A stretch of DNA of 64,000 nt, taken from positions 3,761-67,760 of the IMG/VR virus record IMGVR_UViG_3300029994_000005; one strand, given 5' to 3'. A program made the translations under genes and the position numbers. This document shows positions 1,289 through 29,974 of this stretch, piece by piece. Origin of the DNA: a virus. The notes beneath the pieces were generated by a model. That model did not search any database, was not told where the DNA came from, and saw only the letters and a program-made list of their open reading frames with translations. The number at the start of each line of letters is the position of its first letter. Position 1 is the stretch's first letter.

Positions 1289-1311
1289 TGTTTATATGGT
1301 ATTATTAAGTT

Positions 1312-1902
1312 ATGAAGTTTTGCCCATCTTGCAATCAAGAAAAATCTAAGTTAGATTTCTATACAAATAAAAGAACACCTGATGGTGTCAGCTATACCTG
1401 CAAGTCTTGTATGTCCGCATATTCTAAACAGTATAGGGCCGACAATGAGGCTAGATTAGCACAATTAAAGAAAAACTGGTATGTCGAGAATAAGGAAGAA
1501 GCTCTTGCTTATGCTGCTGAATACTATCAGCAGAATAAAGAAGAAATAATTAAAAAAGTAGTTAATTATCGCTCTAAGAGATTAAAAACCGATGTAGAGT
1601 TTCGATTACAGAAAAACTTGCGGCATAGGTTGGGTAAGCTACTAAAACAGCAATCTTCGTCTATAGCTGTAACATTTCTAGGCTGTTCTTTAGAAGAGTT
1701 CAAACTTCATCTTGAGAGAAATTTTCAACCTGGTATGACTTGGGATAATTATGGGTCAAGAGGCTGGCATATAGATCATAAAATGCCCCTTTCGGCATTT
1801 AATCTTCAGAATGAAGAAGAAGTGAAGAAAGCTTGTCATTATAGCAATCTTCAGCCGCTCTGGTGGCAGGACAACCTTTCAAAGAGTAATAAGGTAGAAT
1901 AG
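1312..1902 (+). CDS. HNH homing endonuclease with an N-terminal Zn ribbon
   Basis: N-terminal CPSC...CKSC pairs. C-terminal HNH core GWHIDHKMP...N...LQPLWWQDNLSKSNK. Paralogous to the ORFs at 11200 and 50677. Confidence 0.8.
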   Translation: MKFCPSCNQEKSKLDFYTNKRTPDGVSYTCKSCMSAYSKQYRADNEARLAQLKKNWYVENKEEALAYAAEYYQQNKEEIIKKVVNYRSKRLKTDVEFRLQKNLRHRLGKLLKQQSSSIAVTFLGCSLEEFKLHLERNFQPGMTWDNYGSRGWHIDHKMPLSAFNLQNEEEVKKACHYSNLQPLWWQDNLSKSNKVE

Positions 1903-1906
1903 CTAC

Positions 1907-3901
1907 ATGGCATTATGGGACGACTGGATCAAAAAACAAATCAAGGGCGAAATTGACGAGCTGCTTAAAGCAGACGGCGTTTCTCTTCAAAATGAAACCC
2001 CTGCAACTGCACCTACTGGTATGGTTCAAGGTGCCTATACTGCGGACATTCTTCCGGATGGCAACACACTTCCAGATGGTTCTAAAGACATCGGTCGTAA
2101 GTCGCTGATCGATGACCCGTACTTCGACAACCTGACAACTCAGGTTAACTATAAACACAAGCTGTCGCGTCTTACTAACCGGATGCTTAAAGAAGTATCT
2201 ATCCGTGACTGGTTGGTCTCATCGATCATCCAAGCCCGTGTTGATACCCTTTTGCGCTTCTCGCGTCCCGAGCACCGTCGCCATGAGATGGGTTTCCGCT
2301 TTGTTAAGAAAGACCATAACGCTGAGTACACTCAAGATGAGCTTGGCGAAATTGCAGCATTAGAAGACTTCATCTACCACTGCGGCCGTAAAGAAGGAAC
2401 CCCTGTCGAAGATCGCATGATGTTCGGCGAATTCCTTAAGCTGATCGTGCGTGATGCTCTTACTTTCGGTCACGTTGCTATTGAAAAAGTTAAGACACGT
2501 AAGGGTGGATTGCACCGCTTCCGTCCATTGCCAGCTGAGTCCCTTTACCTGATCAACCGTCGCATGTCGAAGGAACAAGTAAAACAAGAAGACAAAGCTG
2601 CCAATAATACTTACCGCGTACCGGTAAGCGATAACGATCCTAAGCAGAACCAAGAGATCAATGATGTAATTCCTGAGTTCTATAAGTACGTACAGATGTC
2701 GTACAACATGCAGCCTATTGCTCACTTCGGTGAGGAAGATCTTATTTTTAAGAACTTTAATCCGCAAAACTTTGCAGATTCAAACGGTTATTGCTACTCT
2801 CCTTTGGAGTTGGCGATCATCAACATCACTAACCACTTGAACGTAGAGAATTACAATGCTAACTTCTTTACTCATGGTTATGCTGCACGAGGCGTTCTCC
2901 ACTTAAAGGGAACTGTTACTCAGTCTCAGCTGATGAACTTCCGTCGTCAGTTCTATAACACCATCTCTGGTCAGCAGCACGCTTGGCGTACTCCGATCGT
3001 TGCTGGTCTTGATGAAGTTCAATGGGTACCAATGTCTGGTTCGGCGAAGGAGATGGAATACATCAACTTCAACAACCACTTAATGCGTATCGTTTGCGCT
3101 CAGTTCCAGATTGATCCAGTAGAGCTTGGTTTAGATTATCTCGTATCTGCTAATGGTAAATCACCTGCGCAGCAGTCGAACAACGAATACAAGATCACCT
3201 ACTCTCGTGAGCGCGGTCTCTATCCGATCATGATGAACATCGAAGATCTCATTAACGGTGAGATCCTTCCTGGTGTTGACAAGGACCTGGCTAACAAGTA
3301 CAAGTTCACATTTACTGGCTACACAGACGAGACTCCTCAGACTGAAATTGCACAAATGCAAGCTGAGATGACTGTTTGGAAGTCAATGAACGATCTTCTT
3401 ATCCAGTCTCAAAAAGAGCGGTTGAAAACACCGGCCGGCGATCTTCCATTGAACCAGGCTTTCTGGGCCCTAGTCGAAAAGAATTACACTCGTGGTGAAA
3501 TCCGTGAGATTTTCTTTGGAGACAAAGGTGCTGCAGAGCGTCGTGAGTTGCAATATATCCCTGGAGATCCAGCATTCATGTCTTGGCAGCAAACTATCCT
3601 GGCTATTGACTCTGCTAAAGAGCAAAAAGAACAGGCTGCACAACAACAGACTGCTGAGCAACAGCAACAAGCAATGCAAATGAAGTTGCAAGAGCAACAG
3701 CATGGTCATGCTGAAGCTGGACACAAGCGTGATCAAGAGAAGCATGAAATGGAGATGGAACAACTGAAGGCGCAAGCCGCAGCTGACGCCGTTCACCACG
3801 GCAACCCTCTCGCAGACGCTGCAAAGCAATTCGGAGCTTCGGGAAGTTCTAATATTGGTGGTAAAGTTACTGCCAACCCGATCAATAAGTTAGATGAGTG
3901 A
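1907..3901 (+). CDS. Portal protein
   Basis: A 664-aa ORF immediately downstream of the terminase/HNH genes. Size and position are typical of a portal. The C-terminus is Gln/Glu-rich low complexity. Confidence 0.65.
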   Translation: MALWDDWIKKQIKGEIDELLKADGVSLQNETPATAPTGMVQGAYTADILPDGNTLPDGSKDIGRKSLIDDPYFDNLTTQVNYKHKLSRLTNRMLKEVSIRDWLVSSIIQARVDTLLRFSRPEHRRHEMGFRFVKKDHNAEYTQDELGEIAALEDFIYHCGRKEGTPVEDRMMFGEFLKLIVRDALTFGHVAIEKVKTRKGGLHRFRPLPAESLYLINRRMSKEQVKQEDKAANNTYRVPVSDNDPKQNQEINDVIPEFYKYVQMSYNMQPIAHFGEEDLIFKNFNPQNFADSNGYCYSPLELAIINITNHLNVENYNANFFTHGYAARGVLHLKGTVTQSQLMNFRRQFYNTISGQQHAWRTPIVAGLDEVQWVPMSGSAKEMEYINFNNHLMRIVCAQFQIDPVELGLDYLVSANGKSPAQQSNNEYKITYSRERGLYPIMMNIEDLINGEILPGVDKDLANKYKFTFTGYTDETPQTEIAQMQAEMTVWKSMNDLLIQSQKERLKTPAGDLPLNQAFWALVEKNYTRGEIREIFFGDKGAAERRELQYIPGDPAFMSWQQTILAIDSAKEQKEQAAQQQTAEQQQQAMQMKLQEQQHGHAEAGHKRDQEKHEMEMEQLKAQAAADAVHHGNPLADAAKQFGASGSSNIGGKVTANPINKLDE

Positions 3902-3957
3902 GTTATATGTTTATAGAGGTCGCATGGTTTCATATAGAGACTATGCGGCCTACTGTC

Positions 3958-4012
3958 AAGTACTCCGGGTATTATTTCGTCTAGAGGTTATAGACGAACA
4001 AGTAGTACTTGA
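3958..4012 (+). other. Nested inverted repeat (compound hairpin) in the portal-downstream intergenic region
   Basis: Outer stem caagtact (3958-3965) pairs with agtacttg (4005-4012). Inner stem tcgtcta (3978-3984) pairs with tagacga (3992-3998), with a 7-nt loop. Confidence 0.4.
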
Positions 4013-4069
4013 TTCCGTTCTGGAGTTCATACCGTTCTTTGTATAATCTCTTCTGATGAGGAGATTTCA

Positions 4070-4918
4070 ATGTCGTTAGTAATACTTGAAGGATTAGACC
4101 GTACCGGGAAATCTACAATTGCCGACTATTTCGAAACCCTCGGTTTTGAAAAGCTTCACATGTCTGCTCCTCCAAAAGGCACGACATCAGACCAATACCT
4201 GCAAGACATCGTTGAGTTAGTTTCTTCTGCTGCAAACAAAGATATGGTTCTTGACCGTTCTCACTATGGTGAGTTGGTATGGCCACAGGTTTATGGACGT
4301 AAAGCTCTTCTCGACGACGAGGCAATTGAAATGATCCGTGAGATCGAGCAATCAGTTGGCGTTCAACGCCTCTGGCTGACAGATGATGATCTGAAGGGTC
4401 ACTGGCAGCGTTGCGTCGACAATAAGGAGCCTTTGGACAAGGCCCAATTCACTCGCGCACGTGGACTGTTCTCGTCAATGGCACAGCAGTATGGATTTGA
4501 GAAAGTAACGTTACAGACGTTCCTGAAACAGTTCCCAGATGCACAGTCTATTGTAGACGCACAGAAAGCAACAGCTTTAGAAACTAAAACTTATCAGGTT
4601 ACTGGTTCTGGCGATCAGCAAGTAACTACAGAAGTAGATACAACTAAGGTTGTTTCATCTACTGTAGCTAAGTATCCAGGCAAGAGCCCAGAGCAACACA
4701 AACTTGAAGTTGCTAACGCAATTAACGGTATTCTTGCAAAGCCTATCCTCAAAAGCAAAGCTGCAGTGTATATTGATCTGGAGAATGAAGTTCGTAACTT
4801 CCTCACGACCAAACTAGGCAAGCTTCTTGGTGGACAGCAAGAGACTTCTTTGACTAACGAAGAAGTAAAGTTCTATAAAGAGATGTATAAAAGAGCTATG
4901 ACTAAAGGAGCAAACTAA
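4070..4918 (+). CDS. P-loop NTPase with a dNMP/dNK kinase-like N-terminal domain
   Basis: Walker A motif LEGLDRTGKST, followed by a DRS-type motif (VLDRSHYGELVW) as in the dNMP / deoxynucleoside kinase family. The C-terminal 150 aa are of unknown function. A preceding RBS is present (ggagatttcaATG). Confidence 0.55.
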   Translation: MSLVILEGLDRTGKSTIADYFETLGFEKLHMSAPPKGTTSDQYLQDIVELVSSAANKDMVLDRSHYGELVWPQVYGRKALLDDEAIEMIREIEQSVGVQRLWLTDDDLKGHWQRCVDNKEPLDKAQFTRARGLFSSMAQQYGFEKVTLQTFLKQFPDAQSIVDAQKATALETKTYQVTGSGDQQVTTEVDTTKVVSSTVAKYPGKSPEQHKLEVANAINGILAKPILKSKAAVYIDLENEVRNFLTTKLGKLLGGQQETSLTNEEVKFYKEMYKRAMTKGAN

Positions 4919-5487
4919 TGAAGGGTTTTCGTGTACCGCCTCAGCCTAACAAGAAAGAGGCACAACAAGCAGTTCAAACTGAGTTGGCTAATATCCAAAT
5001 GGCTAGTCGCATCTCGCAGATGATGACACAGCAATTGATGGAAAACGTCAAGAACATGAAGCAAGACCTCGGTGGAGCGCTTCAGCAGTTGATGGAAGTT
5101 CAATATAAGTTGAAAGCTATTCAAAAGCATTTCAACCTCAATGAAGCAGAGTTGAATGAGCTCTCTAACGCTCAGCGCCTGGTTGATTTTAACGAAGCAG
5201 CAGATAACGCTGACGTTCGTGAAAACCTGGTGGCAGCTGATGCTATCAGTGAAGATTCAACGATCACTATCACTTCTGTTGCAAAAAACGACAAAGGTGA
5301 GGATCAAGGCATCTTCCGCTCACGCCTTAAATTGTCCGAGTCTGGCGTTCCTGCTCTGATTCAAGACTTGCAAGGTAAAGGCGTTGGCGATAAAGTAACT
5401 GCTAAATTGAATGGTCTTGACCATGAAGTAGAAGTTCTCTCTATTCGTAATCCTTCGCCCTCAGCTTCGCTTGAGGTCGTACAGTAA
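4918..5487 (+). CDS. Hypothetical protein
   Basis: 189-aa ORF whose start overlaps the upstream stop (TAATG). Confidence 0.5.
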   Translation: MKGFRVPPQPNKKEAQQAVQTELANIQMASRISQMMTQQLMENVKNMKQDLGGALQQLMEVQYKLKAIQKHFNLNEAELNELSNAQRLVDFNEAADNADVRENLVAADAISEDSTITITSVAKNDKGEDQGIFRSRLKLSESGVPALIQDLQGKGVGDKVTAKLNGLDHEVEVLSIRNPSPSASLEVVQ

Positions 5488-5894
5488 TGTCTAATACACC
5501 AGCTCAAAAGATGGATAAGAGATGTCCAAGACGTCTCGAAGACATGCCGGACAGCTGGTGTCCGCTTGCAGTTCTACGTTTAAAAGCTATCCGTAATGCA
5601 GGTCGTGAGCTAACTGAAGACGAAGAAGCGTTACTGCCCGGGTGTCCCTGGGCCGTAGACCACCAGTTAGCTCACTATTGCTTCTTCGAATATCTTACTA
5701 AGTTTACCACAGAAAACTCGATCTCTGATATCGAGCTGGCAGGACTTCTTAATGTCTCGGTTGATACTGTTAAAAAGATTGAGAAGGGCGCTCTTACCAA
5801 GATGCGAGACCATAGCACCTTTTCAGATCTTAAAAAGGGTGGGGAACAAGTTGTTTCAGACTCCGATAGTCCGGACTATAAGATATACAGATGA
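5487..5894 (+). CDS. Sigma-70 region-4-like HTH protein
   Basis: C-terminal segment ISDIELAGLLNVSVDTVKKIEKGALTKMRD resembles sigma-70 region 4.2. The start overlaps the upstream stop. Confidence 0.5.
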   Translation: MSNTPAQKMDKRCPRRLEDMPDSWCPLAVLRLKAIRNAGRELTEDEEALLPGCPWAVDHQLAHYCFFEYLTKFTTENSISDIELAGLLNVSVDTVKKIEKGALTKMRDHSTFSDLKKGGEQVVSDSDSPDYKIYR

Positions 5895-6098
5895 AATTAT
5901 TTAAACTTTTTTTGGGAAGCAAACATATAAAGTTATATAAAGATCCACTAATATCTTTAATTGAATTATTAATGAAACTTGAATTACAGGCTGATATCGC
6001 ATATCCGCCCATTAAACCTATTGATGTGCTTGGTAAATTTGAAGTAGAAGAGTTGATATGACTTACTTTTAAGCCAGTTAACATGATACAATAAAACC

Positions 6099-6620
6099 AT
6101 GTCAATTGGAATTTACTGTATTAGAAATATAGCAAATGATAAGCGTTATATAGGCTCTTCTAGAAATATAGAGGCCCGCTGGCGTGTTCACAAAAGTCAT
6201 CTCCGTCATCGTAAGCATCACTCAGATCATCTTCAAAAGTCATACAATCTTGATAATTGTTTTTCTTATGAAATATTAGAGCATGTTGCTGATTTATCTA
6301 AGTTAGAAATAAGAGAACAATATTGGGTTGACTATTTTCAGTCATATAAAAGCGATTATGGCTACAATGCTGTAAAAACAGTATCTAAGATCGATCCACA
6401 AAGAATGCGTGAACGCTGGGCAAAACCGGGTGAAAAAGAAGCACAATCTGTTCGCATGAAAACTATATGTTCTTCAGCTGAACATAAATTTAAGCTGTCT
6501 AATGGTCATATAGAATACTTTCGTGATCCTAATAATCGATTGAAAAAGTTAGAACAAATACCTCATAAAAAGATGGTTCGCCATATAGAATCTGGCAAGA
6601 TCTATCTATCTATCTATTAA
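6099..6620 (+). CDS. GIY-YIG homing endonuclease; the catalytic domain is intact but the C-terminus is frameshifted
   Basis: N-terminal motif GIYCIRNIANDKRYIGSS...R...N (GIY-YIG). The ORF stops right after a (TCTA)4 repeat at 6601-6617. Confidence 0.75.
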   Translation: MSIGIYCIRNIANDKRYIGSSRNIEARWRVHKSHLRHRKHHSDHLQKSYNLDNCFSYEILEHVADLSKLEIREQYWVDYFQSYKSDYGYNAVKTVSKIDPQRMRERWAKPGEKEAQSVRMKTICSSAEHKFKLSNGHIEYFRDPNNRLKKLEQIPHKKMVRHIESGKIYLSIY

Positions 6621-6720
6621 TCAGGCAGCTAAGAGCTTAGGTGTTTCTATTGTTAAGATAAGAGATAGCGCTAATGGCAAAAGAAGGTCAAATGGTGGAA
6701 TCTCATTTGAATGGGTAAAT
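6589..6720 (+). other. +1-frame continuation encoding a NUMOD/IENR-like DNA-binding helix of the GIY-YIG endonuclease
   Basis: The +1 frame reads ...SIYLSINQAAKSLGVSIVKIRDSANGKRRSNGGISFEWVNHEET*. This is typical of the C-terminal DNA-binding modules of I-TevI/Seg-type endonucleases. It has no start codon of its own. Confidence 0.55.
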
Positions 6721-6721
6721 C

Positions 6722-8392
6722 ATGAAGAAACGTAAACCTTTAGAAATTGATGGTGTTCTTGGTTCTGAGTTAAGAGATACTCAAGGCGAAATGCTGTCAG
6801 TTGAGGGTGCTGATATATCCGAATTAGAAGCTGGTCGTGGTCGCTGGAATGATAATCATGGTAAGGGCTTTTTTAATTCTATTGGTCGTATCACAAAAGC
6901 TAAAAAAATCTTTAAAAAAGAAGATTGCGAAGACGATAGGCAGAGATATTATTGGGATAAAATCAAAGCACCATATATCTATGGGGCTGGATATCTTTAT
7001 GATGATGACGACCATCCTAATGCCAAAGCCGCTGCTGCCATCTTACGTAACATCCATAAAGCAGATACACCGTTACAGTTGAAAGCTTCAGTTGAGGGTG
7101 GCGTCGTAGCGCGCGGCATTAAAGATCCATCTCTTTTAGCTAGAACAAAAATCCATTCCTGCGCTTTAACTTTTACTCCCGCGAATAATGCCACATTAAT
7201 TGAACCCATGAGTCTTAAGAAGTCTCAGTATGATGAGATTGCCGATATGCTTCTAATCAAATCGGTAATGCACTTGGCTCAGACAAACGTTCCATCGTTC
7301 CGTCATATTGCTAGAGATGCATCTGCTACTAAGGTACAGAACAATCTCGCCAAACTAGTTGATTTAATGAAGGAATTAGGAATTGAAGGCGAGATCACCA
7401 TACCTTCAAAAGAATCTATTCTTCGTAAAGCTTTAGAGCAAAAGATACAGTCGAATCTTGAAGAGATTCACGCTAAGATGGCTTCTCTAAAAAAAGAAGA
7501 ACTAGAAAAAGCGAAGATGAAGAATGCTATGACTGCTGCCGGTATAGGCGCAGCAATGGCTCTAGCTCCATCGATGGTTTCTTCGAGTGAACCAAAGGTT
7601 CAAAAACAACCTGTCGTACAGCAGCAAGTTAATCCTAAGGTTGAATTAAACGATGTGTTAGCTAATACCAGCAAGCAGTATCCATTGCTTGGTGCTATTG
7701 CTAACGTTGAATCCTCAAATGGAAAGAACCTTCAGCATAAGACAATGAACGAAGGTATTCACAAGGGAATGACTGCTGGTGGACCTTACGGAATGATGCC
7801 GCACTCTGCTGCATTTATCCTTCAAAAAGATCCAGAACTTGCTAAAAAGTACCCTAAGCTTTTAGCTTCGGCAAAAGATGTTAGCAAGCATCATAAAGAT
7901 TTTACAGACGCCTTTAATAACGATCCGCAAGCCGCAGCCGACTTTGCAGTCGCCTTTTATAAGAGAAACAAAGGGAAGACTAAGTCCGACCAACAGTTGA
8001 CTTACAGTTGGCTGAACGGTTTGAAGGGTTCGTGGGACAAATATAAAGAGGGCGGCGAACAAGCTCTCGATGAGCATCCTTATGTTCAGAATGTTATGAA
8101 GGAATATAGCAAACTGAAGCCTAAGAAAGCCGAGAAACCTAAGCAAGATAAGCCACTTAAGAAGGCTATGACTGCTGGGTATGGCGGTGGTGGAAGCCCT
8201 GGCGCTTTATCAGGTGGTGGAGTACTCCAAAGCGAAGCCTTGGACGAAGGACGGTCGAAACTAAAATATATTAGTTGCGATAATTGTGGAAAAGAGCAAG
8301 TCTACTCGAAACACCAGGTAAAATGTAGGGAGTGTGGTCACGGTATGAGTTTTGAAAAGCTCTATGGTGCCATGCGCGGTAACAAGAAGTAA
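6722..8392 (+). CDS. Prohead protease (S78/HK97-like N-terminal domain) fused to a coiled-coil scaffold-like region with a C-terminal Zn ribbon
   Basis: N-terminal RGRWNDNHGKGFFNSIGRI...LKASVEGGV resembles the HK97-family prohead protease. The middle is coiled-coil (EEIHAKMASLKKEELEKAKMK). The C-terminal CDNCG...CRECGHG forms a Zn ribbon. Confidence 0.6.
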   Translation: MKKRKPLEIDGVLGSELRDTQGEMLSVEGADISELEAGRGRWNDNHGKGFFNSIGRITKAKKIFKKEDCEDDRQRYYWDKIKAPYIYGAGYLYDDDDHPNAKAAAAILRNIHKADTPLQLKASVEGGVVARGIKDPSLLARTKIHSCALTFTPANNATLIEPMSLKKSQYDEIADMLLIKSVMHLAQTNVPSFRHIARDASATKVQNNLAKLVDLMKELGIEGEITIPSKESILRKALEQKIQSNLEEIHAKMASLKKEELEKAKMKNAMTAAGIGAAMALAPSMVSSSEPKVQKQPVVQQQVNPKVELNDVLANTSKQYPLLGAIANVESSNGKNLQHKTMNEGIHKGMTAGGPYGMMPHSAAFILQKDPELAKKYPKLLASAKDVSKHHKDFTDAFNNDPQAAADFAVAFYKRNKGKTKSDQQLTYSWLNGLKGSWDKYKEGGEQALDEHPYVQNVMKEYSKLKPKKAEKPKQDKPLKKAMTAGYGGGGSPGALSGGGVLQSEALDEGRSKLKYISCDNCGKEQVYSKHQVKCRECGHGMSFEKLYGAMRGNKK

Positions 8393-12335: not shown

Positions 12336-13010
12336 ATGAAAAAGGCACGTTATATCTGTCTCGAAGGCACTGAAGGCGTAGGAAAAACAACTCAAACGCA
12401 GAAGTTGGTAGATACCCTTCGCGCGCGAGGATACACCGTATTGCAAACGAAAGAACCGGGCACACCTCTCGTTCCGTTGACAATGGCGTTGCGAGGGATC
12501 ATGTTGGACAATCAATACGATGCTGTTCTGACGAAACCTGCAAGAGAATTTATCTCTCAAGCGATCCGTTCTATTCATCTCGAACGACTTATCGTTCCTT
12601 CTCTAAACGAATATGATTTCATCATTCAAGACCGAGGTATCCTCAGTGGATATGCTTACGGTACTGCATGCGGCAATCTTACCGAAGATCTCATCAGTAT
12701 GGCTAATCAGAACGTTGATTCTGCCGATAATCAGCTCGGAATCTTCCCTCCTTCCGCAGAGCAGATCTATGAGACTGTAATATATCTTCGAGGGGATTCT
12801 GTCAAAGGTTTGGCTGCGGCCAAACAGGCGAAGCAGGAATTTTCTGCTGGCGACGCGATGGAATCTCGTGGAAACGATTTTATTAGTAAGTGCGCATTTT
12901 ACATGGATAAGCTGTCCGAGCGCTTTAACACTGTTAGAATAGACGTTGACGGCAAGTCAATTGAAGATGTACATAACGAGATACTTGCCGGTCTCGGATT
13001 GGGGAAATGA
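12336..13010 (+). CDS. tmk: Thymidylate kinase
   Basis: P-loop YICLEGTEGVGKTTQ with the QTKEPGTP motif. The start is placed at the internal Met (MKKARY), since the longer ORF from 12213 overlaps the upstream gene. Confidence 0.75.
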   Translation: MKKARYICLEGTEGVGKTTQTQKLVDTLRARGYTVLQTKEPGTPLVPLTMALRGIMLDNQYDAVLTKPAREFISQAIRSIHLERLIVPSLNEYDFIIQDRGILSGYAYGTACGNLTEDLISMANQNVDSADNQLGIFPPSAEQIYETVIYLRGDSVKGLAAAKQAKQEFSAGDAMESRGNDFISKCAFYMDKLSERFNTVRIDVDGKSIEDVHNEILAGLGLGK

Positions 13011-13837
13011 TGGCTAAGTCCAAGGCGCGTAAAAAGAAACAGTTGACTGGCCCGAAAGTGCTGATCTTTGATATCGAGACCGCTCCTATCATTGCACACG
13101 TTTGGAGCCTATGGGAAAACAATGTATCCCTCAACCAGATCGTGTCCGATTGGCACGTCTTGAGTTGGAGCGCTAAATGGCTCGGAGACGCGCCTAATAA
13201 GGTCATGTATATGGACCAACGCGGCGCTAAGAACATTGAAGACGACAAGAAGATTTTAGAAGGTATCTGGAATTTGCTTGACGAGTGTGATGTCGTTATC
13301 ACACAGAACGGTAAATCGTTCGACCAGAAGAAGTTGAATGCACGCTTCATCCTGAACGGCTTCCAACCGCCTTCTTCATACAAGCATATCGACACTAAAG
13401 TCATTGCCTCTAAGCATTTCAAGTTCACGTCGAACAAGCTTGAGTATATGACCGACAAATTGAACAAGACCTATAAGAAGCTTAAGCATACTAAATTCCC
13501 GGGACACGAGATGTGGGCCCAGTGTTTAGCTGGTAATCTTGAGGCTTGGAAAGAAATGGAAGTCTACAATAAGTATGACGTCCTTGCCCTTGAAGAGCTT
13601 TACAACAAGCTTATCCCTTGGGATAACAGCATCAACTTTAACGTTTATCATGATGAGGTAGATCACGTGTGCAAATGCGGTAGCACTACATTCATTAAGA
13701 ACGGCTTCTACTATACTTCTGCAGGCAAGTTCCAGAAACACAAGTGTCGCAGCTGTGGAGCCGAACACCGCGATAAAGAAAACCTGTTCAGTAAGGAAAA
13801 GCGCCAATCACTCAAGATGGCGACCCCTAAGACGTAA
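13007..13837 (+). CDS. DnaQ-like 3'-5' exonuclease with a C-terminal Zn finger
   Basis: Exo I motif LIFDIETAP. The C-terminus carries CKCG...CRSCG cysteines. The start overlaps the tmk stop. Confidence 0.65.
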   Translation: MMAKSKARKKKQLTGPKVLIFDIETAPIIAHVWSLWENNVSLNQIVSDWHVLSWSAKWLGDAPNKVMYMDQRGAKNIEDDKKILEGIWNLLDECDVVITQNGKSFDQKKLNARFILNGFQPPSSYKHIDTKVIASKHFKFTSNKLEYMTDKLNKTYKKLKHTKFPGHEMWAQCLAGNLEAWKEMEVYNKYDVLALEELYNKLIPWDNSINFNVYHDEVDHVCKCGSTTFIKNGFYYTSAGKFQKHKCRSCGAEHRDKENLFSKEKRQSLKMATPKT

Positions 13838-19187: not shown

Positions 19188-20501
19188 ATGGCAGACAAAA
19201 AGATGTTAGAAGTTACTCCAGATGGTAAGCAGGAACTTGTAGATGGCAAAGAGCCATTGAAGAAAGATCCTAAGAAGCTTAAGCAGAAGTGGAATGAGTT
19301 GAAGAAAGGTTTAAACAACCTCAATTCAATCATGGACCTTGCTGCAGCTTCTAAGGCCGATCCACAACCTGAAGAAGACGAAGATCAAGACGAGCAGATG
19401 GACCCGGAGATGATGGCGCAAATGGCCGCAGCTCAACAGGGTGAAGAGGGTGACGAAGATGAAGAATCTGAAGAGCCCGTAGAATCTGACGACCAAGAAG
19501 ACGATGAAGAACTTGAGGAGCAACCTGAGGGTGATGAATCTGTCCAAGGGGATCTAGATCAAGATCCAGAAAATACCGAACCAGAAGACGACGTTGAAGA
19601 GCCGTCTGGCGACGATATTCCTGAGCAAGATGATGACGAAGAGATTGACAGCTACGATCAACCTGAAGTATCAGAGCAAGACGCTACTGATGTAGGTGGT
19701 GTTGAAGGTAATGAAGACGACGGCGGTGATGATGAGATCCAACCGGATGATTCCGACGAGGAAAGTGCTGTCCAGGGCGAAGGTGATGGAGAGTTCCAAG
19801 AGGACGACCAGGAGCCGAACGGCGATGACGACTCTGAACAGAAGATTATCCAAGCCCTACAAGATGAAGGGTATTCTGAACCTGAGATCGCATACATTGT
19901 CCGTGGGCACCACTCACCGACTTATGATGAGAGCGCAGAAGCTAAAGCGCAAGCAACGCGCGACATGTCTGGTGTCGATGTTGAGAATGCTAAAGCTGAA
20001 GGCGACGCTAATCTTAAACTGAAGATGCAACAGGCAGATCTTGAGCACAAGCATGCTATGCGTATGAAGGACCTTGAGTTCGAACACGCACAGATGATGT
20101 CTCCAGACCCTGAGACTGAGAAAAACCATAAGAAGCGCATGCTCGATCTCGAGTACGAGAACGCTAAAGCTCAATCGCCAGATGGCTCTGATAAAGAGCA
20201 CCAGAAGCGTATGATGGACGTTGAATACCAGAATGCAATGGCTTCATCTCCAGATCCTGAGATCGCTAAGCAAATGGCTCAGATGGACGTAGAAGAACGC
20301 AGAGTTCAACTTGAGCTTCGTAAAAAAGAAGCTGAACTTGAATTGAAGTTTAAAGAGCGGGAACACGAGCTTAAATTGAAGCATGCAGAGATGCTTGCTC
20401 AGAAGAAGCTTAAAGAAAAGCTCGCCGAGAAACCAGCACCTAAGGCTCCTGCAAAGAAGCTAAAGAAGTCGGAAGATGAGGAATACGATGTCGAGGATTG
20501 A
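19188..20501 (+). CDS. Highly acidic (Asp/Glu-rich) protein with a C-terminal coiled coil
   Basis: 437-aa ORF with extreme D/E content (EEDEDQDEQ..., DDDEEIDSYD...). Confidence 0.5.
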   Translation: MADKKMLEVTPDGKQELVDGKEPLKKDPKKLKQKWNELKKGLNNLNSIMDLAAASKADPQPEEDEDQDEQMDPEMMAQMAAAQQGEEGDEDEESEEPVESDDQEDDEELEEQPEGDESVQGDLDQDPENTEPEDDVEEPSGDDIPEQDDDEEIDSYDQPEVSEQDATDVGGVEGNEDDGGDDEIQPDDSDEESAVQGEGDGEFQEDDQEPNGDDDSEQKIIQALQDEGYSEPEIAYIVRGHHSPTYDESAEAKAQATRDMSGVDVENAKAEGDANLKLKMQQADLEHKHAMRMKDLEFEHAQMMSPDPETEKNHKKRMLDLEYENAKAQSPDGSDKEHQKRMMDVEYQNAMASSPDPEIAKQMAQMDVEERRVQLELRKKEAELELKFKEREHELKLKHAEMLAQKKLKEKLAEKPAPKAPAKKLKKSEDEEYDVED

Positions 20502-22857: not shown

Positions 22858-25800
22858 ATGTCATCACCAGGAACACTTAGATTTGGGCAAGTTGCGACAA
22901 AACCGTCTCCGCCACCGTCGGGTTATGATCTCATCTACGTTAAAACAGATGACGTTCTCTATATACAAGATTCTTCTGGAGTTGAGGTTGCCCTTGGCTC
23001 TGCTAGCGCTATCACCTCTTTAACTGGCGATGTAACAGGATCTGGTCCTGGCTCTGCTGCCACTACTGTTAACTTTGTGGGTGGAGCTAGTGCCGCTTCT
23101 ATTGCAGCCGCTGCAACTGCAATTGGTACTGCAACGCCCCTTAATATTCCAAATACCGTAGTTGAGAGAGATAGCTCTGGTAACTTTGCAGCTGGAATCA
23201 TTACTGCATCCTTAAATGGAAATGCCAACACTGCTAGAACATCAATAAGCTTTACTGGTAGTTTGTTGGGCGATGTCACCGGAACACAAGGTGCAACTGT
23301 TGTTTCGTTTGTGGGTGGTTCTTCAGCTGCTAATGTGCACAGTGCAGAATTGGCAGCGAATGCAGCGACAGCTTTAAATACTGCGTCTACTATAGTAAAG
23401 CGTGATGCATCTGGTAACTTTGCCGCTAACGTAATCACTGCGTCATTGACAGGCAATGTAACTGGTAATTTAGTAGGTAACGTAACTGGTAACGTAAGTG
23501 GATCTGCCGCGTCATTTACCGGCAATTTAGCTGGTGATGTTACCGGTACTCAAGGTGCCACTGTCGTTGGTGCTATACAAGGGACTGCAGTTAACCCTAC
23601 TGCACCAACTGATGCTCAATTCTTAGTTTATCAAACCGGCATAACTTCTTATAAAGCTGTAAGCATGTCTGGTGCCGCCACTATGTCTGATACTGGAGTA
23701 GTTACGCTCACTAACACTTCAGTAACCGGCCAACTATTGACAGGATATGCAACAGGCTCTAATACACCTATCACTGCAACAAATTCAATACTAACGGCTT
23801 TTGAGAATTTACAGGCTCAGATAGTTGCTACCGTTGGTGCTGCTATTACTTCACTAATTGGCGATGTAACTGCAACTGGACCTGGAGCTGCGACTGCAAC
23901 TGTTGTTGCCCTTCAAGGACATGCGGTCTCTGCGACTGCACCTACCGATGCCCAAATTTTGATCTGGAACTCTGGCACCAGCTCGTGGACTCCAGAGAGC
24001 ATGTCTGGCGATGTTCACATTACAGATCTAGGTGTTACAAGTATAGTTGCCACAACAAACTCTACAATTACCACCCTGTCTGCATTGTCTTTACCTGGTT
24101 CTCAGGTTACTGGAAATATTCCTGGAAATGCGGCAAACATTACGGCCACAACCAACTCTACATTGACGACTCTTACAGCATTGAGTTTGCCAACTACTCA
24201 ACTCACTGGTACTCTTCAGGCAGCGCAATTCCCAGCGTTGACTGGCGACGTAACGACTACTGCTGGTTCTCTGGTTACCCATCTAGTTGCTACTACTAAC
24301 TCTACGTTAACAACTCTTTCTGCATTGAGTTTACCAACTACTCAATTGACTGGTACTCTACAAGCCGCACAAGAACCTGCACATACCGGAGATGTAACGA
24401 ATACCGCTGGTTCTCTAGTATTAAGTCTAGTTGCTACAACGAATTCGACATTGACGACTCTTACAGCGTTAGCTTTGCCAACTACTCAATTGACTGGTAC
24501 TCTACAAGCCGCACAAGAACCTGCACATACCGGAGATGTAACGAATACCGCTGGTTCTCTGGTTACTCACCTAATTGCTACTACTAACTCTACGTTAACA
24601 ACTCTTTCTGCATTGAGTTTACCTGGATCTCAGGTCACCGGTAACATCGCAGGTAACGCCGCTAATGTTACAGGTGTAGTGGCTATAGTTAACGGTGGCA
24701 CCGGTCAAACTACAGCAAACGCTGGATTTGATGCTCTGTCGCCAATGACTACTCTGGGTGACATCATCTATGAAAATGCAACACCAACTGCTGCTAGACT
24801 TCCTGGTAACACTACGACAGCTCGCGAGTTTTTGACTTCTCAAGGTACAGGTACTCTAGCAAATGCGCCATCATGGAGTTCACTAGTTTCCGGTGATATT
24901 CCTAATAATGCTGCAAATACTTCAGGTACTGCTGCTAACGTTACTGCAACAACTAATAGCACATTGACATCATTACCTAGTTTAACATCTGCCACATCCT
25001 TAGCCCTTTTAGGTTCTCAAATCGGCGGATTTACTCAAGGCAGTGTTATCTTCGCTAGCGCAACTGGAACTCTCACTCAAGATAATGCTAATTTCTACTG
25101 GAACGACACTACATTGGCTTTGGGCATTGGTGTGCAGCCAGCTACAACAGCAGTTTTAGATATTGTTAACAACTCCGGCACTACTAAGGCCATTCAGGTT
25201 ACTGGGTATGGCTCTAACGTAGGATTTAGCGGAAGAGAAGCAGGTGGTACACTTGCAAGTCCTTCTGCTACAACGAGTGGAACAAACTTGACATTCTTCT
25301 CTGGTGGAGGTTATGGCGCTACGGCATTCGCTGTCGCTAGTACTGGCGTTGTGAACATCGTAGCAGGAGCTACCTTCACTGATACATCTATGCCTACGTA
25401 CATCGGCTTTAGCGTAACGCCGGTTGGTTCAGTAACTTCCGCAGAAGCCATGAGGATCGCACCAACAGGACATCTTCTACTCGGAACAACTACGGATGGA
25501 AGTCAGCTATTACAAGTTAATGGAAGTGCTCTCTTCGCTGGTATTGCAACTTTAAGCGTTGCTCCTATTACTTCTAGCTTGACTGGTTATCTATATGGTA
25601 ATGGTGCTAGTCAGGTTACTGCTTCAACAACTATCCCAGGTACCGCTATCACAGGCAACATCTCTGGTAATGCTGCCAATGTGACAGGAATAGTTAACAT
25701 TGCTAACGGCGGCACTGACCTTTCGACTGCGCCAACCAACGGTCAATTATTGGTAGGCAATGGTACTGGATATACTCTAGCTACATTGACCCAAGGTACT

Positions 25801-26142
25801 GGTATTTCCATTACCAATACTGCTGGTGCGATCACGATTGTAAACAATGGCATCACCCCTCTCGTGACCAAAACCGCAAACTACAATATTTTATCTACCG
25901 ATGGAGCAATTCTTTGTGATACTTCGGGAGGAGCGTTTACTCTCACTCTACCTTCTCCCACTGGTCTATCTGGTAAAACATTCAAAATCATTGATTCAAC
26001 TGGATTCTTTCAGGCTAACAACTTAACTCTGGCTCCTAATGGTTCAGAGAAAATTGAGGGGTTGGCAGCAAGTAAAGTTCTTCAAACACCATGGGGTTGG
26101 TTCAATGTGGTAACTGATGGCGTTTCGTGGTTTGTAGGTTAA
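22858..26142 (+). CDS. Tail fibre protein with internal tandem repeats
   Basis: 1094-aa Ser/Thr/Gly/Ala-rich ORF with RBS aggagatacgATG. It contains repeated ATTNSTLTTLSALSLP(T/G)(T/S)Q(L/V)TG... units. Confidence 0.7.
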   Translation: MSSPGTLRFGQVATKPSPPPSGYDLIYVKTDDVLYIQDSSGVEVALGSASAITSLTGDVTGSGPGSAATTVNFVGGASAASIAAAATAIGTATPLNIPNTVVERDSSGNFAAGIITASLNGNANTARTSISFTGSLLGDVTGTQGATVVSFVGGSSAANVHSAELAANAATALNTASTIVKRDASGNFAANVITASLTGNVTGNLVGNVTGNVSGSAASFTGNLAGDVTGTQGATVVGAIQGTAVNPTAPTDAQFLVYQTGITSYKAVSMSGAATMSDTGVVTLTNTSVTGQLLTGYATGSNTPITATNSILTAFENLQAQIVATVGAAITSLIGDVTATGPGAATATVVALQGHAVSATAPTDAQILIWNSGTSSWTPESMSGDVHITDLGVTSIVATTNSTITTLSALSLPGSQVTGNIPGNAANITATTNSTLTTLTALSLPTTQLTGTLQAAQFPALTGDVTTTAGSLVTHLVATTNSTLTTLSALSLPTTQLTGTLQAAQEPAHTGDVTNTAGSLVLSLVATTNSTLTTLTALALPTTQLTGTLQAAQEPAHTGDVTNTAGSLVTHLIATTNSTLTTLSALSLPGSQVTGNIAGNAANVTGVVAIVNGGTGQTTANAGFDALSPMTTLGDIIYENATPTAARLPGNTTTAREFLTSQGTGTLANAPSWSSLVSGDIPNNAANTSGTAANVTATTNSTLTSLPSLTSATSLALLGSQIGGFTQGSVIFASATGTLTQDNANFYWNDTTLALGIGVQPATTAVLDIVNNSGTTKAIQVTGYGSNVGFSGREAGGTLASPSATTSGTNLTFFSGGGYGATAFAVASTGVVNIVAGATFTDTSMPTYIGFSVTPVGSVTSAEAMRIAPTGHLLLGTTTDGSQLLQVNGSALFAGIATLSVAPITSSLTGYLYGNGASQVTASTTIPGTAITGNISGNAANVTGIVNIANGGTDLSTAPTNGQLLVGNGTGYTLATLTQGTGISITNTAGAITIVNNGITPLVTKTANYNILSTDGAILCDTSGGAFTLTLPSPTGLSGKTFKIIDSTGFFQANNLTLAPNGSEKIEGLAASKVLQTPWGWFNVVTDGVSWFVG
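24040..24650 (+). repeat. Tandem repeats of about 117 nt (about 39 aa) inside the tail fibre gene
   Basis: Near-identical nucleotide blocks recur. One is actactaactctacgttaacaactctttctgcattgagttta. Another is caattgactggtactctacaagccgcacaagaacctgcacataccggagatgtaacgaataccgctggttctct. Confidence 0.8.
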
Positions 26143-26145
26143 TTT

Positions 26146-27009
26146 ATGTCTAAATATGTAAAACAATTATTCACTACATCTGGAACCTGGACTTGTCCTG
26201 CCGGTATTACAAACATAGTAGTTTGGGGTCGCGGTGGAACTGGCGGAGGCGGTGGCGGAGGTGGCGGATCTGGCGGCTCCACAACTAGCGGTGGAACTGG
26301 CGGTGGAAGTGGTGGACCAGGTGGATCTCTAACTTCTCTATCTTTTCAACTAACAGTTGTTCCTGGAACCGCTTACACAATAACTATCGGACAAGGTGGA
26401 GCCGGTGGTGCCGGTGGTGCAGGTGGTGTAGCAGGCGGTGCTGGGGGCACTGGAAGTAATGGAATCGTAGGAACTCCATCATCTTTTGATGGTATTTTAT
26501 CTTTTCAACCTAGTGCTCCTGGTTTTGGTGGTACTGGAGGAGTAACAGGCGGTGCGAATGGAGTTGCAGGCACATATGGTCCTGGAGAATTTCAAGGAAC
26601 TCCATCTTTGTCTTTTGCTAGTGGCAATGGTGGAGGCCGTGGTTCGGCGGGCTATGCTGGTTACGTACCAGTTGGAGCATGGAATCCATTTTTTACCTAC
26701 GGCACTGCTGGCGCTGGCGGAAGTGCCACTTCGGGAATTGGGAGTGGAGGCGGTGGAGGCGGTGGTTCAGCACCAGTTGCAGGAGATGCGACTGGTCCAA
26801 ACGGCTCTACTGGAGGAAATGGTGGTGCCTCTGGTTCTAATGGCGGAAATGCTCCAACAGCTTCTTCAGCAATTGCTGGATCAGGTGGACCCGGTGGAGG
26901 TGGTGGTGGTGCAGGTGGATTAAAAGCAACTACTGGAACAACTGGCGGTAACGGCGCAACTGGAGCAACTGGAAGTAACGGTCAGATTATTGTTACGTGG
27001 GTGGAATAA
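26146..27009 (+). CDS. Glycine-rich protein, paralog 1 of 3
   Basis: N-terminus MSKYVKQLFTTSGTWTCPAGITNIVVWGRGG followed by poly-Gly. C-terminus SNGQIIVTWVE. Conserved internal motif VVPGTAYTITIGQGGAGGAGGAGG. Confidence 0.6.
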   Translation: MSKYVKQLFTTSGTWTCPAGITNIVVWGRGGTGGGGGGGGGSGGSTTSGGTGGGSGGPGGSLTSLSFQLTVVPGTAYTITIGQGGAGGAGGAGGVAGGAGGTGSNGIVGTPSSFDGILSFQPSAPGFGGTGGVTGGANGVAGTYGPGEFQGTPSLSFASGNGGGRGSAGYAGYVPVGAWNPFFTYGTAGAGGSATSGIGSGGGGGGGSAPVAGDATGPNGSTGGNGGASGSNGGNAPTASSAIAGSGGPGGGGGGAGGLKATTGTTGGNGATGATGSNGQIIVTWVE

Positions 27010-27881
27010 TGGCAAAAATGGTTAGAGAATTATTCACTACATCTGGAACCTGGACTTGTCCTGCTGGCATTACGAATATTATTGTCTGGGGGCGAGGTGG
27101 CTCTGGTGGCGGAGGCGGTGGCGGAGGAGGTGGCGGAGGATCTACTACTGCTGGAGCTGGCGGTGGATCTTCTGGTGGACCAGGCGGAAGTATGGTAACT
27201 CTTCCATTTGAACTTATCGTCGTTCCAGGGACCTCTTATACTATAACCATAGGTACTGGTGGTGCAGGTGGTGCAGGTGGTGCAGGTGGTGTAGCAACTG
27301 CTGGTGGATCAATTGGAACTGCTGGTGGCGCAGGTTCATCTGGTACTGCAACTACCTTTGACGTCCTTTTATCCTTCCAACCAGGTCGCGGTGGAACTGG
27401 CGGTGGAGGCGGAGGAAGTGGTGGACTTAGTGCTACTGCTGGTGCTGGTGGTTTTGGAACTTATGGCATCTTACCGTTTCAACCGTATGGTGTTGGCGGT
27501 GGCGGTGGTGCAGGAACGGCGGGTAATGCTGGTCGCACTATATATGGTTCTCAATCTCCATTTTTTGTTAGTGGAGCTGGAGGAGCGGGCGGGGCTTCAG
27601 GTGGTGCAGGTGGAGGCGGTGGCGGTGGTGGAAGTTCAGCTGCTCCAGCAGGAGATGCGACTGGCCCAAGCAGCAGCGCTGCTGGAGGAAATGGTGGTGC
27701 CTCTGGTTCTAATGGAGGAAATGGTGGTGCAGCTTCATCTGCTATATCAGGCTCTGGTGGTGGAGGTGGCGGAGGTGGCGGAGGTGGTGGTACACTTGCA
27801 ACGACTGGATCCACTGGCGGCATCGGAGCAAATGGAGCAGCTGGAAGTAACGGTCAAATTATTGTTCAGTGGGTTGAATGA
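26997..27881 (+). CDS. Glycine-rich protein, paralog 2 of 3
   Basis: Same N-terminal (FTTSGTWTCPAGITNIIVWGRGG) and C-terminal (SNGQIIVQWVE) motifs. It overlaps paralog 1 by 13 nt. Confidence 0.6.
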   Translation: MGGIMAKMVRELFTTSGTWTCPAGITNIIVWGRGGSGGGGGGGGGGGGSTTAGAGGGSSGGPGGSMVTLPFELIVVPGTSYTITIGTGGAGGAGGAGGVATAGGSIGTAGGAGSSGTATTFDVLLSFQPGRGGTGGGGGGSGGLSATAGAGGFGTYGILPFQPYGVGGGGGAGTAGNAGRTIYGSQSPFFVSGAGGAGGASGGAGGGGGGGGSSAAPAGDATGPSSSAAGGNGGASGSNGGNGGAASSAISGSGGGGGGGGGGGGTLATTGSTGGIGANGAAGSNGQIIVQWVE

Positions 27882-27965
27882 AAAAATACAATTACTTTCA
27901 AGTTTTACCTTTGACTGTAGGCCAGAATCTATCCATAATTCACACATTATATACATTAATGGCGG

Positions 27966-28862
27966 TTGTCAATGTCTAAATATGTAAAACGAATTTTCAC
28001 GTCTTCTGGAACCTGGACTTGCCCTGCTGGCATTACGAATATAACTGTTATCGGGAGAGGTGGCACTGCCGGAGGTAGTGGTGGAGGAGGAGGCGGTGGT
28101 GGTGGTGGAAGTTCTAATGGAGGTGGTGGTGGATCTGCTGGTTCTTCTGGACCCGCTAATATATCTTTACCGTATCCCGTCACTGTCGTTCCCGGAACTA
28201 CTTATACGATCACTATCGGGGCAGCAGGAACTGCAGGCAGCGGAGGCGCTGCTGGAACAATAACAGGTCAAGGTGGTACAGGAGGTCAAGGTGGACCAGG
28301 TGGCAGTAGTTCTTTTGGGTCTTTGGTTTCATTTTTAGGATCTGCATATGATGGTTCTACTGTAGGTGGAGGAGGAACTGCTGCTGGAGTGGGAGCTATT
28401 TATTATGACAGCACCTCTCCAAAAGCATTTGGAACATTTCAATCATCTGGTCTATCTTTACTATATGCATGTGGAGAAGGTGGTACAGGAGGAGCAGCAT
28501 CTACTGCAGGTGGCAATGCGACTGATACAACAACATTAGTAGGAGCACTTTCTCCTTTCTTCTTGGCTGGAAGTGGTGCGTTGGGAGGAACTGCCGGTGG
28601 TGTTAACGGAGGCGGAGGTGGTGGAGCTGGTGCGAGTGGCGGCGCTGGAGATGCACCATCCAATATTGGAGCAGCTGGTGGCAATGGTGGTACCTCTGGA
28701 GTTGCTGGTAGTGCGGGAGCAAATGCTTTACCTTCCACCGCTGGATCTGGTGGACTAGGTGGTGGAGGAGGAGGCGGTGGCGGATCAGGTGCCGCTGGAG
28801 GGAAGGGTGGCAATGGTAGTGCGGGAAGTTCTGGACAAATTGTCGTATTGTGGGTAGAGTAA
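27966..28862 (+). CDS. Glycine-rich protein, paralog 3 of 3
   Basis: Same N-terminal (FTSSGTWTCPAGITNITVIGRGG) and C-terminal (SSGQIVVLWVE) motifs. Confidence 0.6.
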   Translation: MSMSKYVKRIFTSSGTWTCPAGITNITVIGRGGTAGGSGGGGGGGGGGSSNGGGGGSAGSSGPANISLPYPVTVVPGTTYTITIGAAGTAGSGGAAGTITGQGGTGGQGGPGGSSSFGSLVSFLGSAYDGSTVGGGGTAAGVGAIYYDSTSPKAFGTFQSSGLSLLYACGEGGTGGAASTAGGNATDTTTLVGALSPFFLAGSGALGGTAGGVNGGGGGGAGASGGAGDAPSNIGAAGGNGGTSGVAGSAGANALPSTAGSGGLGGGGGGGGGSGAAGGKGGNGSAGSSGQIVVLWVE

Positions 28863-28913
28863 TATGGAGCACAATCCCCTATTGTGTGATGTAGTTTTAC
28901 AGAGAGGTGGATC

Positions 28914-29450
28914 TTGATTTACGCGCAGATAAGAAATAATACAATTGTAAATACATTAGAACTTGAGGATTCAAGTCTTGTATCTTTATTCCAAAATGAC
29001 TCCAATGGAGTTCCTTATGACTCGGTTCAACAGATAGACGCTTTGTCTCCTCAACCTGGGATTGGATGGATTTTTGATAATATTGGTTGGAATCCTCCCA
29101 ACTCAACTACTCCACCACAAAGTGCAGTTCAAATTTATACAACACTTGTTCAAAATGCTATTATTTTTGGACAAAATCTAACAATTCAATTTGCAACTCA
29201 AAATATTATGTCAGGAATTACTCAATCGGGTAAAACACAAGCAGTATTAGATTACGCTTCAGACCTTTATACTTACCTTTCTACTGGATCACTCTATGTA
29301 GCCATCACAGAAATTCAAACAATGATTGCCGATACAAGCGATGCAAAAACTGCTCTTGCCCCTTTTATCACAAATAGCATACTATATTCTTATATGAATC
29401 AGATTCAGGGATATCTCAACCTTCCCTTAACCATAAACCCAGGATCGTAA
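28914..29450 (+). CDS. Hypothetical protein
   Basis: 178-aa ORF. Confidence 0.5.
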   Translation: MIYAQIRNNTIVNTLELEDSSLVSLFQNDSNGVPYDSVQQIDALSPQPGIGWIFDNIGWNPPNSTTPPQSAVQIYTTLVQNAIIFGQNLTIQFATQNIMSGITQSGKTQAVLDYASDLYTYLSTGSLYVAITEIQTMIADTSDAKTALAPFITNSILYSYMNQIQGYLNLPLTINPGS

Positions 29451-29974
29451 TGAAACAAATTACTATAGGTTTTTCTCGGGCTTGTACAACTTTTCCTATT
29501 TTCAGTTGGCTGATCCAATTAGTTCAAAAGACTAACTATTCGCATGTCTATTTGAAATATCACGATGAATATTTAGGGCAAGATATGATTTTTCAAGCAT
29601 CGCATAGTGTTGTAAATTCTATGAGTTTGCCAGTGTTTTTAGCACAAGAAACTGTGGTTAAAGAATTCACATTCAATGTTTCAGATGTCACTTTTCTAAA
29701 AACTATGCAGTTTGCGGCAAATCAGGCTGGAAAGCCGTATGGAGTGCTTGAGATATGTGGACTTGCACTAGTTGAACTATGTGCCCTGATCGGAATAAAG
29801 ATCCAGAATCCAGTGAAGGATTCTGGCCAGACCTACATCTGCGATCAATTAGTTGCGGCCATATTGAATGAATGTGAAAATGTTGTGTTGCCAACAAACA
29901 TTAATAATATGATACCAAAGGATGTATTTGCTTTGGTATCAACTCTACCCGCTACATTATCAATCGACAAGTAA
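29450..29974 (+). CDS. Hypothetical protein and last gene of the plus-strand module
   Basis: 174-aa ORF. Its 3' end overlaps the convergent minus-strand gene by 15 nt. Confidence 0.5.
   Translation: MKQITIGFSRACTTFPIFSWLIQLVQKTNYSHVYLKYHDEYLGQDMIFQASHSVVNSMSLPVFLAQETVVKEFTFNVSDVTFLKTMQFAANQAGKPYGVLEICGLALVELCALIGIKIQNPVKDSGQTYICDQLVAAILNECENVVLPTNINNMIPKDVFALVSTLPATLSIDK

Follow-up and report, generated by a model that had tools for sequence, protein, structure and literature searches.

The stretch of DNA analysed here, called the window below, comprises 64,000 nucleotides (nt) of the IMG/VR virus record IMGVR_UViG_3300029994_000005 (positions 3,761 to 67,760) and is part of the genome of an uncultured tailed phage, with genes for a terminase, a portal and a major capsid protein and four tRNA genes. 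On the plus strand, a gene for a tail-fibre shaft protein of 1094 amino acids (aa) with internal repeats of about 48 aa (22858-26142) is followed by three glycine-rich genes, G1 (26146-27009, 287 aa), G2 (27009-27881, 290 aa from its ATG or 294 aa from a GTG at 26997) and G3 (27972-28862, 296 aa from its ATG or 298 aa from a TTG at 27966). Only 3 nt separate the fibre stop from the G1 start (GGT TAA TTT ATG), with both open reading frames (ORFs) in frame 1; the ATG of G2 overlaps the stop of G1 as TAATG, and a spacer of 90 nt (27882-27971) precedes G3. The same products of 287, 290 and 296 aa were called independently on near-identical public contigs. We propose that G1-G3 are probably distal tail-fibre tip proteins encoded separately from their fibre, a reading for which homology and gene context argue and from which we infer their presence in the virion, docking, stoichiometry and receptor binding.

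The three products are paralogs, in agreement with an earlier sequence-only reading of this locus. In pairwise comparison G2 and G3 are 67% and 54% identical to G1; in a wider alignment the identity among the three copies is 51-66%, and 31-49% once the Gly-Gly columns are removed. Although glycine makes up 35-39% of each protein, a hidden Markov model (HMM) of the family scores them at E values of 1e-91 to 1e-108, well above the expectation from composition only. The conserved N-terminal, internal and C-terminal blocks described in that reading are all present, the first two being less exact in G3, where they read FTSSGTW...ITNITVIGRGG and VVPGTTYTITIGAAGTAGSGG. Two of its details had to be corrected. 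The N-terminal block contains one cysteine (C17) and not two (the entire proteins have one in G1, one in G2 and two in G3), and the glycine-rich core is not the variable part: in an alignment of 13 sequences the glycine runs hold fixed positions, and the entropy is highest in a non-glycine loop region at about residues 131-185 of G1, where G3 has an indel, and in short non-glycine stretches between the glycine motifs. Non-glycine motifs are also kept across the glycine-rich family.

An indication of where these proteins belong comes from relatives in which the same domain is part of a fibre. An exhaustive HMMER search with a profile built from G1-G3 and two relatives returned 1453 cluster representatives at E<=0.001, of which 35 reached E<=1e-30. 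Of the matches listed that score more than about 120 bits, almost every one has the domain as the extreme C-terminus of a protein of 359-1856 aa, and stand-alone proteins of 250-300 aa rank lower. The last ~95 aa of the window's fibre (25861-26133) are 56% identical (E 3e-28) to residues 95-189 of relative P0003, which run straight into its glycine-rich domain at 195-483. This ~95-aa module is also fused to a glycine-rich domain in P0001, whose gene lies just downstream of myophage baseplate genes, in P0004, and in URG13114.1 of the GenBank phage 023Pt_psg01, annotated only as a 'putative structural protein'. The same module ends the fibre gene ahead of stand-alone glycine-rich genes at the compared loci L012, L032, L062 and L083. 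The distance from the conserved tryptophan of the module to the TSSGTWT motif is equal in the fused proteins P0001 and P0003 and across the stop and start codons of the window. Since the fibre ends where its relatives continue into the glycine-rich domain, the window carries a split fibre, and sequence comparison places the cut exactly at the domain boundary: a shaft with a putative docking module, then the separately encoded tips. The fibre-tip, receptor-binding or adhesin-like role that the sequence-only reading had suggested is supported by the fusions in the closest relatives and by conserved synteny, that is, by homology and context.

At three loci a GIY-YIG (+NUMOD3) homing endonuclease gene lies exactly between the fibre and the first tip gene (L003 3564-4274, L081 5218-5919 and L082 5206-5919). 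The window has no counterpart of it at 26143-26145, and the insertion point is where the fused relatives run on; insertion of the endonuclease might have caused or exploited the split of the gene. The module is also found as a stand-alone protein of 133 aa in archaeal tailed viruses (Halorubrum tailed virus 4, HRTV-4, gene 58; L092 2378-2779), with no glycine-rich gene after it.

Library scans of the full-length proteins were nearly silent, because composition filters hide the family: Pfam, PHROGs and NCBIfam gave no assignment for G1-G3 apart from a weak PHROG 'tail fiber assembly' match of G3 (E 3e-4), and there was no Pfam match at E<=0.1. The N-terminal parts of G1-G3 nevertheless align to the start of the PF21722 model (Gly_rich_2, 'glycine-rich domain-containing protein'), and dozens of the proteins retrieved by single-sequence and profile searches have a precomputed match to PF21722. 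Relatives P0007, P0009 and P0018 score 32-49 bits on this model, and the nearest ones (P0001-P0004, P0035-P0048) score below its threshold or not at all; one relative pairs PF21722 with PF12571, the N-terminus of tail-collar fibres. By these profile comparisons, G1-G3 and their nearest relatives form a divergent, more glycine-rich branch around PF21722.

Structure prediction, which the sequence-only reading had proposed as a check, was run on G1 with AlphaFold2. With an alignment of 58 sequences, the model has a mean predicted local distance difference test (pLDDT) score of 89.7 and a predicted template modelling (pTM) score of 0.87. Its beta-strands lie at residues 4-29, 65-80, 112-120 and 280-286; the remainder has no regular DSSP class and is mostly of high confidence, except for about 121-180, where several 10-residue blocks have a pLDDT of 61-77. 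The best structural match is the tail fibre of cyanophage Pam3 (7ypx_A; score 15.4, root mean square deviation 2.1 Å over 176 residues, 26% identity), followed by the Bxb1 'tail wing brush' gp33 (9d93_Qa; 12.8, 175 residues aligned), the Bxb1 tail spike gp29 (9d93_Pa; 10.0) and the glycine-rich domains of an invertebrate ALK (7lir_B; 7.8) and human ALK (7lrz_A; 5.8). In the viral structure library BFVD, a match at E<=0.001 is reached by 209 models; among the best of them, many bear the name 'glycine-rich domain-containing protein' or 'tail fiber protein', and some matches are named collagen-like. Against the PDB sequences, a 5-sequence profile found GGGGS linkers only, and the 58-sequence profile reached Bxb1 gp33 (E 0.018) and the Pam3 fibre (E 0.2), both weakly and amid linker noise. 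Taken together, the model matches a TNF-like beta-sandwich whose glycine-rich loops are packed in a polyglycine-II lattice, and not collagen, and by predicted fold G1-G3 belong with Pam3 gp24 and Bxb1 gp33. Conserved glycine motifs with variable loop ends, as known from this type, are likewise apparent in the alignment, the variability being read from aligned positions.

The array is not peculiar to this phage. Orthologues of the fibre (998-1241 aa) lie upstream of a glycine-rich array in L003, L005, L025 and L082. L005 and L026 have the order fibre, three tips, a 161-aa gene and a homologue of the 178-aa gene that lies downstream of the array in the window; L081 and L082 have the same arrangement with the endonuclease gene between the fibre and the tips. 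L024 has the fibre, three tips and a 162-aa gene, its contig ending before any homologue of the 178-aa gene. L031 contains at least tips b (partial) and c and then the same downstream genes, including the 178-aa homologue, and L003 has at least two tips. Two tips are found in the distant relative L083 and in L012, and one in L032, the last two being from other lineages. In L062, from a metagenome-assembled genome (MAG) assigned to Myxococcales, one tip follows one fibre and three follow a second; the tips in L012, L032 and L062 likewise stand behind a fibre that ends in the ~95-aa module. Because the L062 arrays come after this same module, the split architecture recurs far from the phage group of the window. 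This L062 region (1128-6894, CALFEQ010000137.1) is rich in G+C, and its two fibres are short paralogs sharing the module.

A distance tree resolves three tip types, a, b and c, with G1 of type a, G3 clearly of type c and G2 paired with G1. G3, the most divergent copy, has 25 diagnostic matches found only in type c, and its orthologue is the third copy of L005, L024 and L031. G2 combines 16 a-only, 10 b-only and 8 c-only matches, so that by these positions it looks like a mosaic of the a and b types. Recent gene conversion between the copies was rejected, as they are only 69-78% identical in nucleotides over the conserved ends, even though G2 carries mixed a and b signatures. Since the types are resolved across relatives, and the a/b/c trio is kept across phages whose fibres share just 33% identity, the trio is old and stable in this phage group, while the copy number varies from one to three among lineages.

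Variation is also seen between strains, in contigs that are 99.2-100% identical to the window and whose differences are almost confined to the fibre and the tips. All seven differences that L087 shows over 4.5 kb fall in G1-G3, and both of those in L088 fall in G3; these two are the most-differing of the strains at least 99.8% identical. L085 (about 99.2-99.4% identical) shows 49 differences within the fibre, 8 within the tips and a single one outside them. Of six changes in the tips, five affect the encoded protein; the G3 polymorphisms are I64T, Q100T and V131P, and residue 125 of G1 is variable as well. This pattern fits selection on host-contact surfaces, the numbers being small, and it agrees, together with the variable copy number, with the idea of a diversified set put forward in the sequence-only reading, which had called for a comparison of related phages at this locus. 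Two of the G3 replacements involve several bases of a codon (CAA to ACT for Q100T, window 28269-28271; GT to CC for V131P, window 28362-28363). Point mutation is an unlikely source of them; a paralog may have served as the template for small copied patches. The L085 fibre (1089-4229) has 1046 aa against 1094 aa in the window and lacks exactly one 48-aa repeat unit (VATTNSTLTTL...TGDVTNTAGSLV...) from around fibre residue 521 onwards; the number of fibre repeats thus varies within the species.

Other features of the array DNA were also recorded. A metagenome contig of 1972 nt (L023, near 1400-1408), matches the window except that 32 nt are missing from G1 (window 26670-26701) between two short similar motifs, TTACGTACCG and TTACCTACGG, with a shift of frame, which may be an assembly error or a genuine defective variant. 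Proline-rich ORFs on the opposite strand (e.g., 27551-27823 and 28439-28813) mirror GGN codons and were rejected as genes. The G2-G3 spacer contains a sigma-70-like site (TTGACT-17-CATAAT, 27911-27939), which is only a hint and has no statistical support, as 24 promoter-like sites were found in the region against 16.8 +/- 4.3 expected, that is, no enrichment. The T4-type late promoter motif (TATAAATA) is not enriched either, and none lies near the array.

Downstream of the array, the 178-aa protein (28914-29450, plus strand), whose gene is kept at this place in relatives, was modelled with a pLDDT of 90.3 as a small N-terminal domain of beta-strands, a linker and a helical C-terminal domain. 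The same layout of a beta-domain and a helical domain is described for gp25, the fibre chaperone of Pam3 (PMC9608196). On the strength of the predicted structure, the 178-aa protein is a possible fibre or tip chaperone, which would probably aid the folding and assembly of the tips as gp25 does. In relatives, a gene for 161-162 aa (MEKHFALIKNG...) separates the third tip gene from the 178-aa gene (L005 10595-11080, L024 5462-5950, L031 1705-2193, L082 8516-9001), where the window has only a 51-nt spacer (28863-28913). As the N-termini of the 161-162-aa and 178-aa proteins are alike, two chaperone-like proteins may be present in these relatives.

The fold and its role at the host-recognising end of phage tails are already known from Pam3 and Bxb1 and, by analogy, from S16. 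Pam3 gp24 has a TNF-like sandwich with six long loops, in which twelve glycine-rich motifs are stacked in a four-layer lattice, and its authors propose host recognition by a variable distal tip carried on conserved glycine stems (PMC9608196). Pam3 is a myophage in which this domain of gp24, a fibre protein with gp25 as its chaperone (PDB 7YPX, 7YFW; PMC9608196), forms the distal end of the fibre. The proteins of the window resemble gp24 in the predicted sandwich and lattice and in a location that the gene order suggests, and the small gene downstream resembles gp25. In contrast to the window, where the domain is split from a 1094-aa repeat fibre and present in three copies, Pam3 has it fused to a short helical shaft in one gene and one copy, and the sequence link between the two is weak (profile E 0.2).

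PMC13243192 notes the same domain type in Bxb1 gp33, Bxb1 gp29 and S16 gp38, and in hub proteins of siphophages it is called a polyglycine-rich or brush domain (PMC13243795). In Bxb1 (PDB 9D93), where gp29 contains a brush sub-domain, gp33 occurs in the virion as a protein of its own, located at the tail tip (PMC12646305; PMC13243192). With gp33 the tips share the weak direct sequence link (E 0.018) and, if our docking proposal holds, the non-covalent attachment to another tail protein that PMC12646305 gives for Bxb1. Bxb1 differs in being a siphophage whose gp33 hangs from a tail-tip wing (gp30, gp31) and not from the end of a long fibre, in having no tandem trio, and in a partner that is a carboxypeptidase-bearing wing base instead of a ~95-aa module.

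The closest working analogue is the gp38 adhesin of Salmonella phage S16 and the T2 type (PDB 6F45). According to PMC9608196 and PMC13243192, gp38 is a polyglycine-rich adhesin encoded by a separate gene adjoining the long-tail-fibre gene, which caps the fibre tip, its conserved glycine motifs forming a scaffold and its variable loop tips the receptor-binding surface. The window has this gene layout, with a separate gene beside the fibre for a predicted polyglycine-II cap, and the likeness is one of working and not of ancestry. However many tips the window has, gp38 is a single gene; it combines a helical attachment domain with a beta-helix, unlike the TNF-like sandwich predicted here; neither an N-terminal helical attachment domain nor a beta-helix domain was found in G1-G3. 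The glycine-rich domain of ALK/LTK (PDB 7LIR, 7LRZ; PF12810) belongs to a eukaryotic cytokine-binding ectodomain and resembles the tips in fold only, and G1-G3 have no Pfam match to PF12810.

On this basis the following arrangement can be proposed. Each tip would form a TNF-like beta-sandwich made up of conserved strands at the N-terminus, one conserved strand at the C-terminus and a few internal ones. Long glycine-rich hairpin loops would project from this sandwich and, as polyglycine-II helices, pack together in the lattice known as the 'brush' or glycine-rich domain. The sandwich end would sit against the C-terminal ~95-aa module of the trimeric 1094-aa fibre, with the lattice pointing away from it; the attachment, covalent in relatives, would here be non-covalent, probably with one tip per fibre chain. 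The host surface would be contacted by the non-glycine residues that lie farthest out on the loops and by the variable insert at 131-185. Three diverged paralogs with the same docking ends could then equip the virion with several surfaces for receptor binding, whether different fibres bear different caps or the caps themselves are mixed. What was observed of the tip location is that the domain is C-terminal in the fibre proteins of relatives, that the genes abut the fibre gene and that P0001 follows baseplate genes.

Several points weigh against this interpretation. First, residues 1-125/130 of G1, G2 and G3 score 11.4, 14.1 and 16.2 bits on PF21722 and so miss its gathering threshold of 24.3 bits, for which reason the family placement depends on profile links and predicted structure. 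Second, the ~95-aa module also occurs without a glycine-rich partner, in HRTV-4 gp58. Third, the strain-level counts are small, and part of the fibre differences in L085 may be misalignment of repeats.

Among the alternatives, the one that survives best, while still unlikely, is an obligate heterotrimeric cap, with one each of a, b and c on the three chains of a single homotrimeric fibre, forming an asymmetric tip. Three paralogous TNF-like chains make one head in C1q, and a trimeric fibre would provide three docking modules. Such a cap is in agreement with the presence of exactly three copies, orthologous as a, b and c and kept across phages with fibres 33% identical, with the translational coupling of G1 and G2 (TAATG), and with the three tandem tips behind one fibre in the unrelated lineage L062. 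However, the same docking module precedes single tips (L032 and the first fibre of L062) and pairs (L012 and L083), so a 1:1:1 ratio is not required by the fold, and fused relatives carry the same domain on all three chains. The mixed a and b character of G2 and the 90-nt spacer ahead of G3 also count against it, as does the loose contact between TNF-like domains and glycine-rich domains from different chains in Pam3 gp24 (PMC9608196). Because one- and two-copy arrays exist, we prefer tips that serve as alternatives or mixtures on the fibres. Were the obligate cap true, it would be a phage counterpart of the C1q/TNF heads, one fibre showing three different binding faces at once.

Somewhat less probable again is that G1-G3 are accessory 'brush' proteins located elsewhere on the baseplate or fibre, dispensable and aiding a loose, reversible contact with the envelope instead of acting as the primary receptor-binding tip. 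The Bxb1 wing (gp30, gp31, gp33) is non-essential (PMC12646305), and it is only in this gp33-like form that the decoration-protein alternative of the sequence-only reading survives. Against it, the closest relatives hold the domain covalently at the fibre C-terminus, immediately behind the module with which the window's fibre ends, and the tip genes begin 3 nt past the fibre gene. Moreover, no counterpart of the carboxypeptidase-bearing wing base gp30 was found among the eight local genes scanned against Pfam, just a weak Peptidase_C92 match on a 174-aa protein.

A third explanation, read-through of the fibre stop codon to give some fibre-G1 fusion as in the fused relatives, is highly improbable. 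The fibre and G1 are in one frame, separated by TAA and one codon, and the resulting linker would equal in length that of the fused P0001 and P0003. A common frame would arise by chance in one case out of three, TAA leaks least among the stop codons, and G2 and G3 would be left unexplained. As a general mechanism read-through was rejected, since L005 has the two genes in separate frames, a single base lying between stop and start, and the GIY-YIG gene intervenes in L003 and L081/L082; for the same reasons the shared frame in the window is most likely due to chance. Collagen-like or disordered glycine-rich spacers without a defined fold, in spite of the 35-39% glycine and the collagen-like names of some BFVD matches, are hardly credible given a longest strict G-X-Y run of 4 triplets, 10-14 prolines per protein, glycines in GGGG runs and GGx motifs, non-glycine motifs kept across the family and a confident compact model matching solved polyglycine-II domains, so that the collagen-like alternative raised earlier can be set aside.

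Concerning the phage itself, its major capsid protein is only about 30% identical to the counterparts in SPO1-like Bacillus myophages, genes identical to those of the window are found on metagenome contigs of up to 175 kb, and a more distant relative has T4-type tail tube and baseplate domains. Searches of 50,697 GenBank phage records gave no match, either by megablast with the locus or by tblastn with G3. The 174-aa protein mentioned above (29450-29974) follows the 178-aa gene and is kept there in L005, L031, L082 and L083; its match to Peptidase_C92, a permuted papain-like amidase family, is below threshold (E 0.0018), and its match to PHROG 1128 is weak too. Upstream of the fibre, the block of tail and structural genes includes a 437-aa protein (19188-20501) with an extremely acidic, low-complexity first half containing long D/E-rich runs. 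A 276-aa protein (13007-13837) that strongly matches PHROG 403, 'DNA polymerase exonuclease subunit' (E 9e-100), has its gene midway in the structural block, with the capsid genes on one side and the tail genes on the other.

As the fold and the host-recognition role were known before, what is new here lies in the architecture: a clean cut from the fibre, a recognisable putative docking end and a conserved tandem of three diverged tips. The same domain can be separated from its fibre at precisely the domain boundary and provided in trans, and a recognisable fibre end of about 95 aa would mark the place where a tip docks. Phages hold one, two or three tip genes per fibre, and strain changes concentrate in these genes. 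This provides a simple annotation rule for many 'hypothetical' glycine-rich phage proteins, the family counting 1453 cluster representatives and its close relatives escaping Pfam. The locus would also be a natural modular system for the study and engineering of host range, in which tips could be swapped while the fibre shaft is left untouched.

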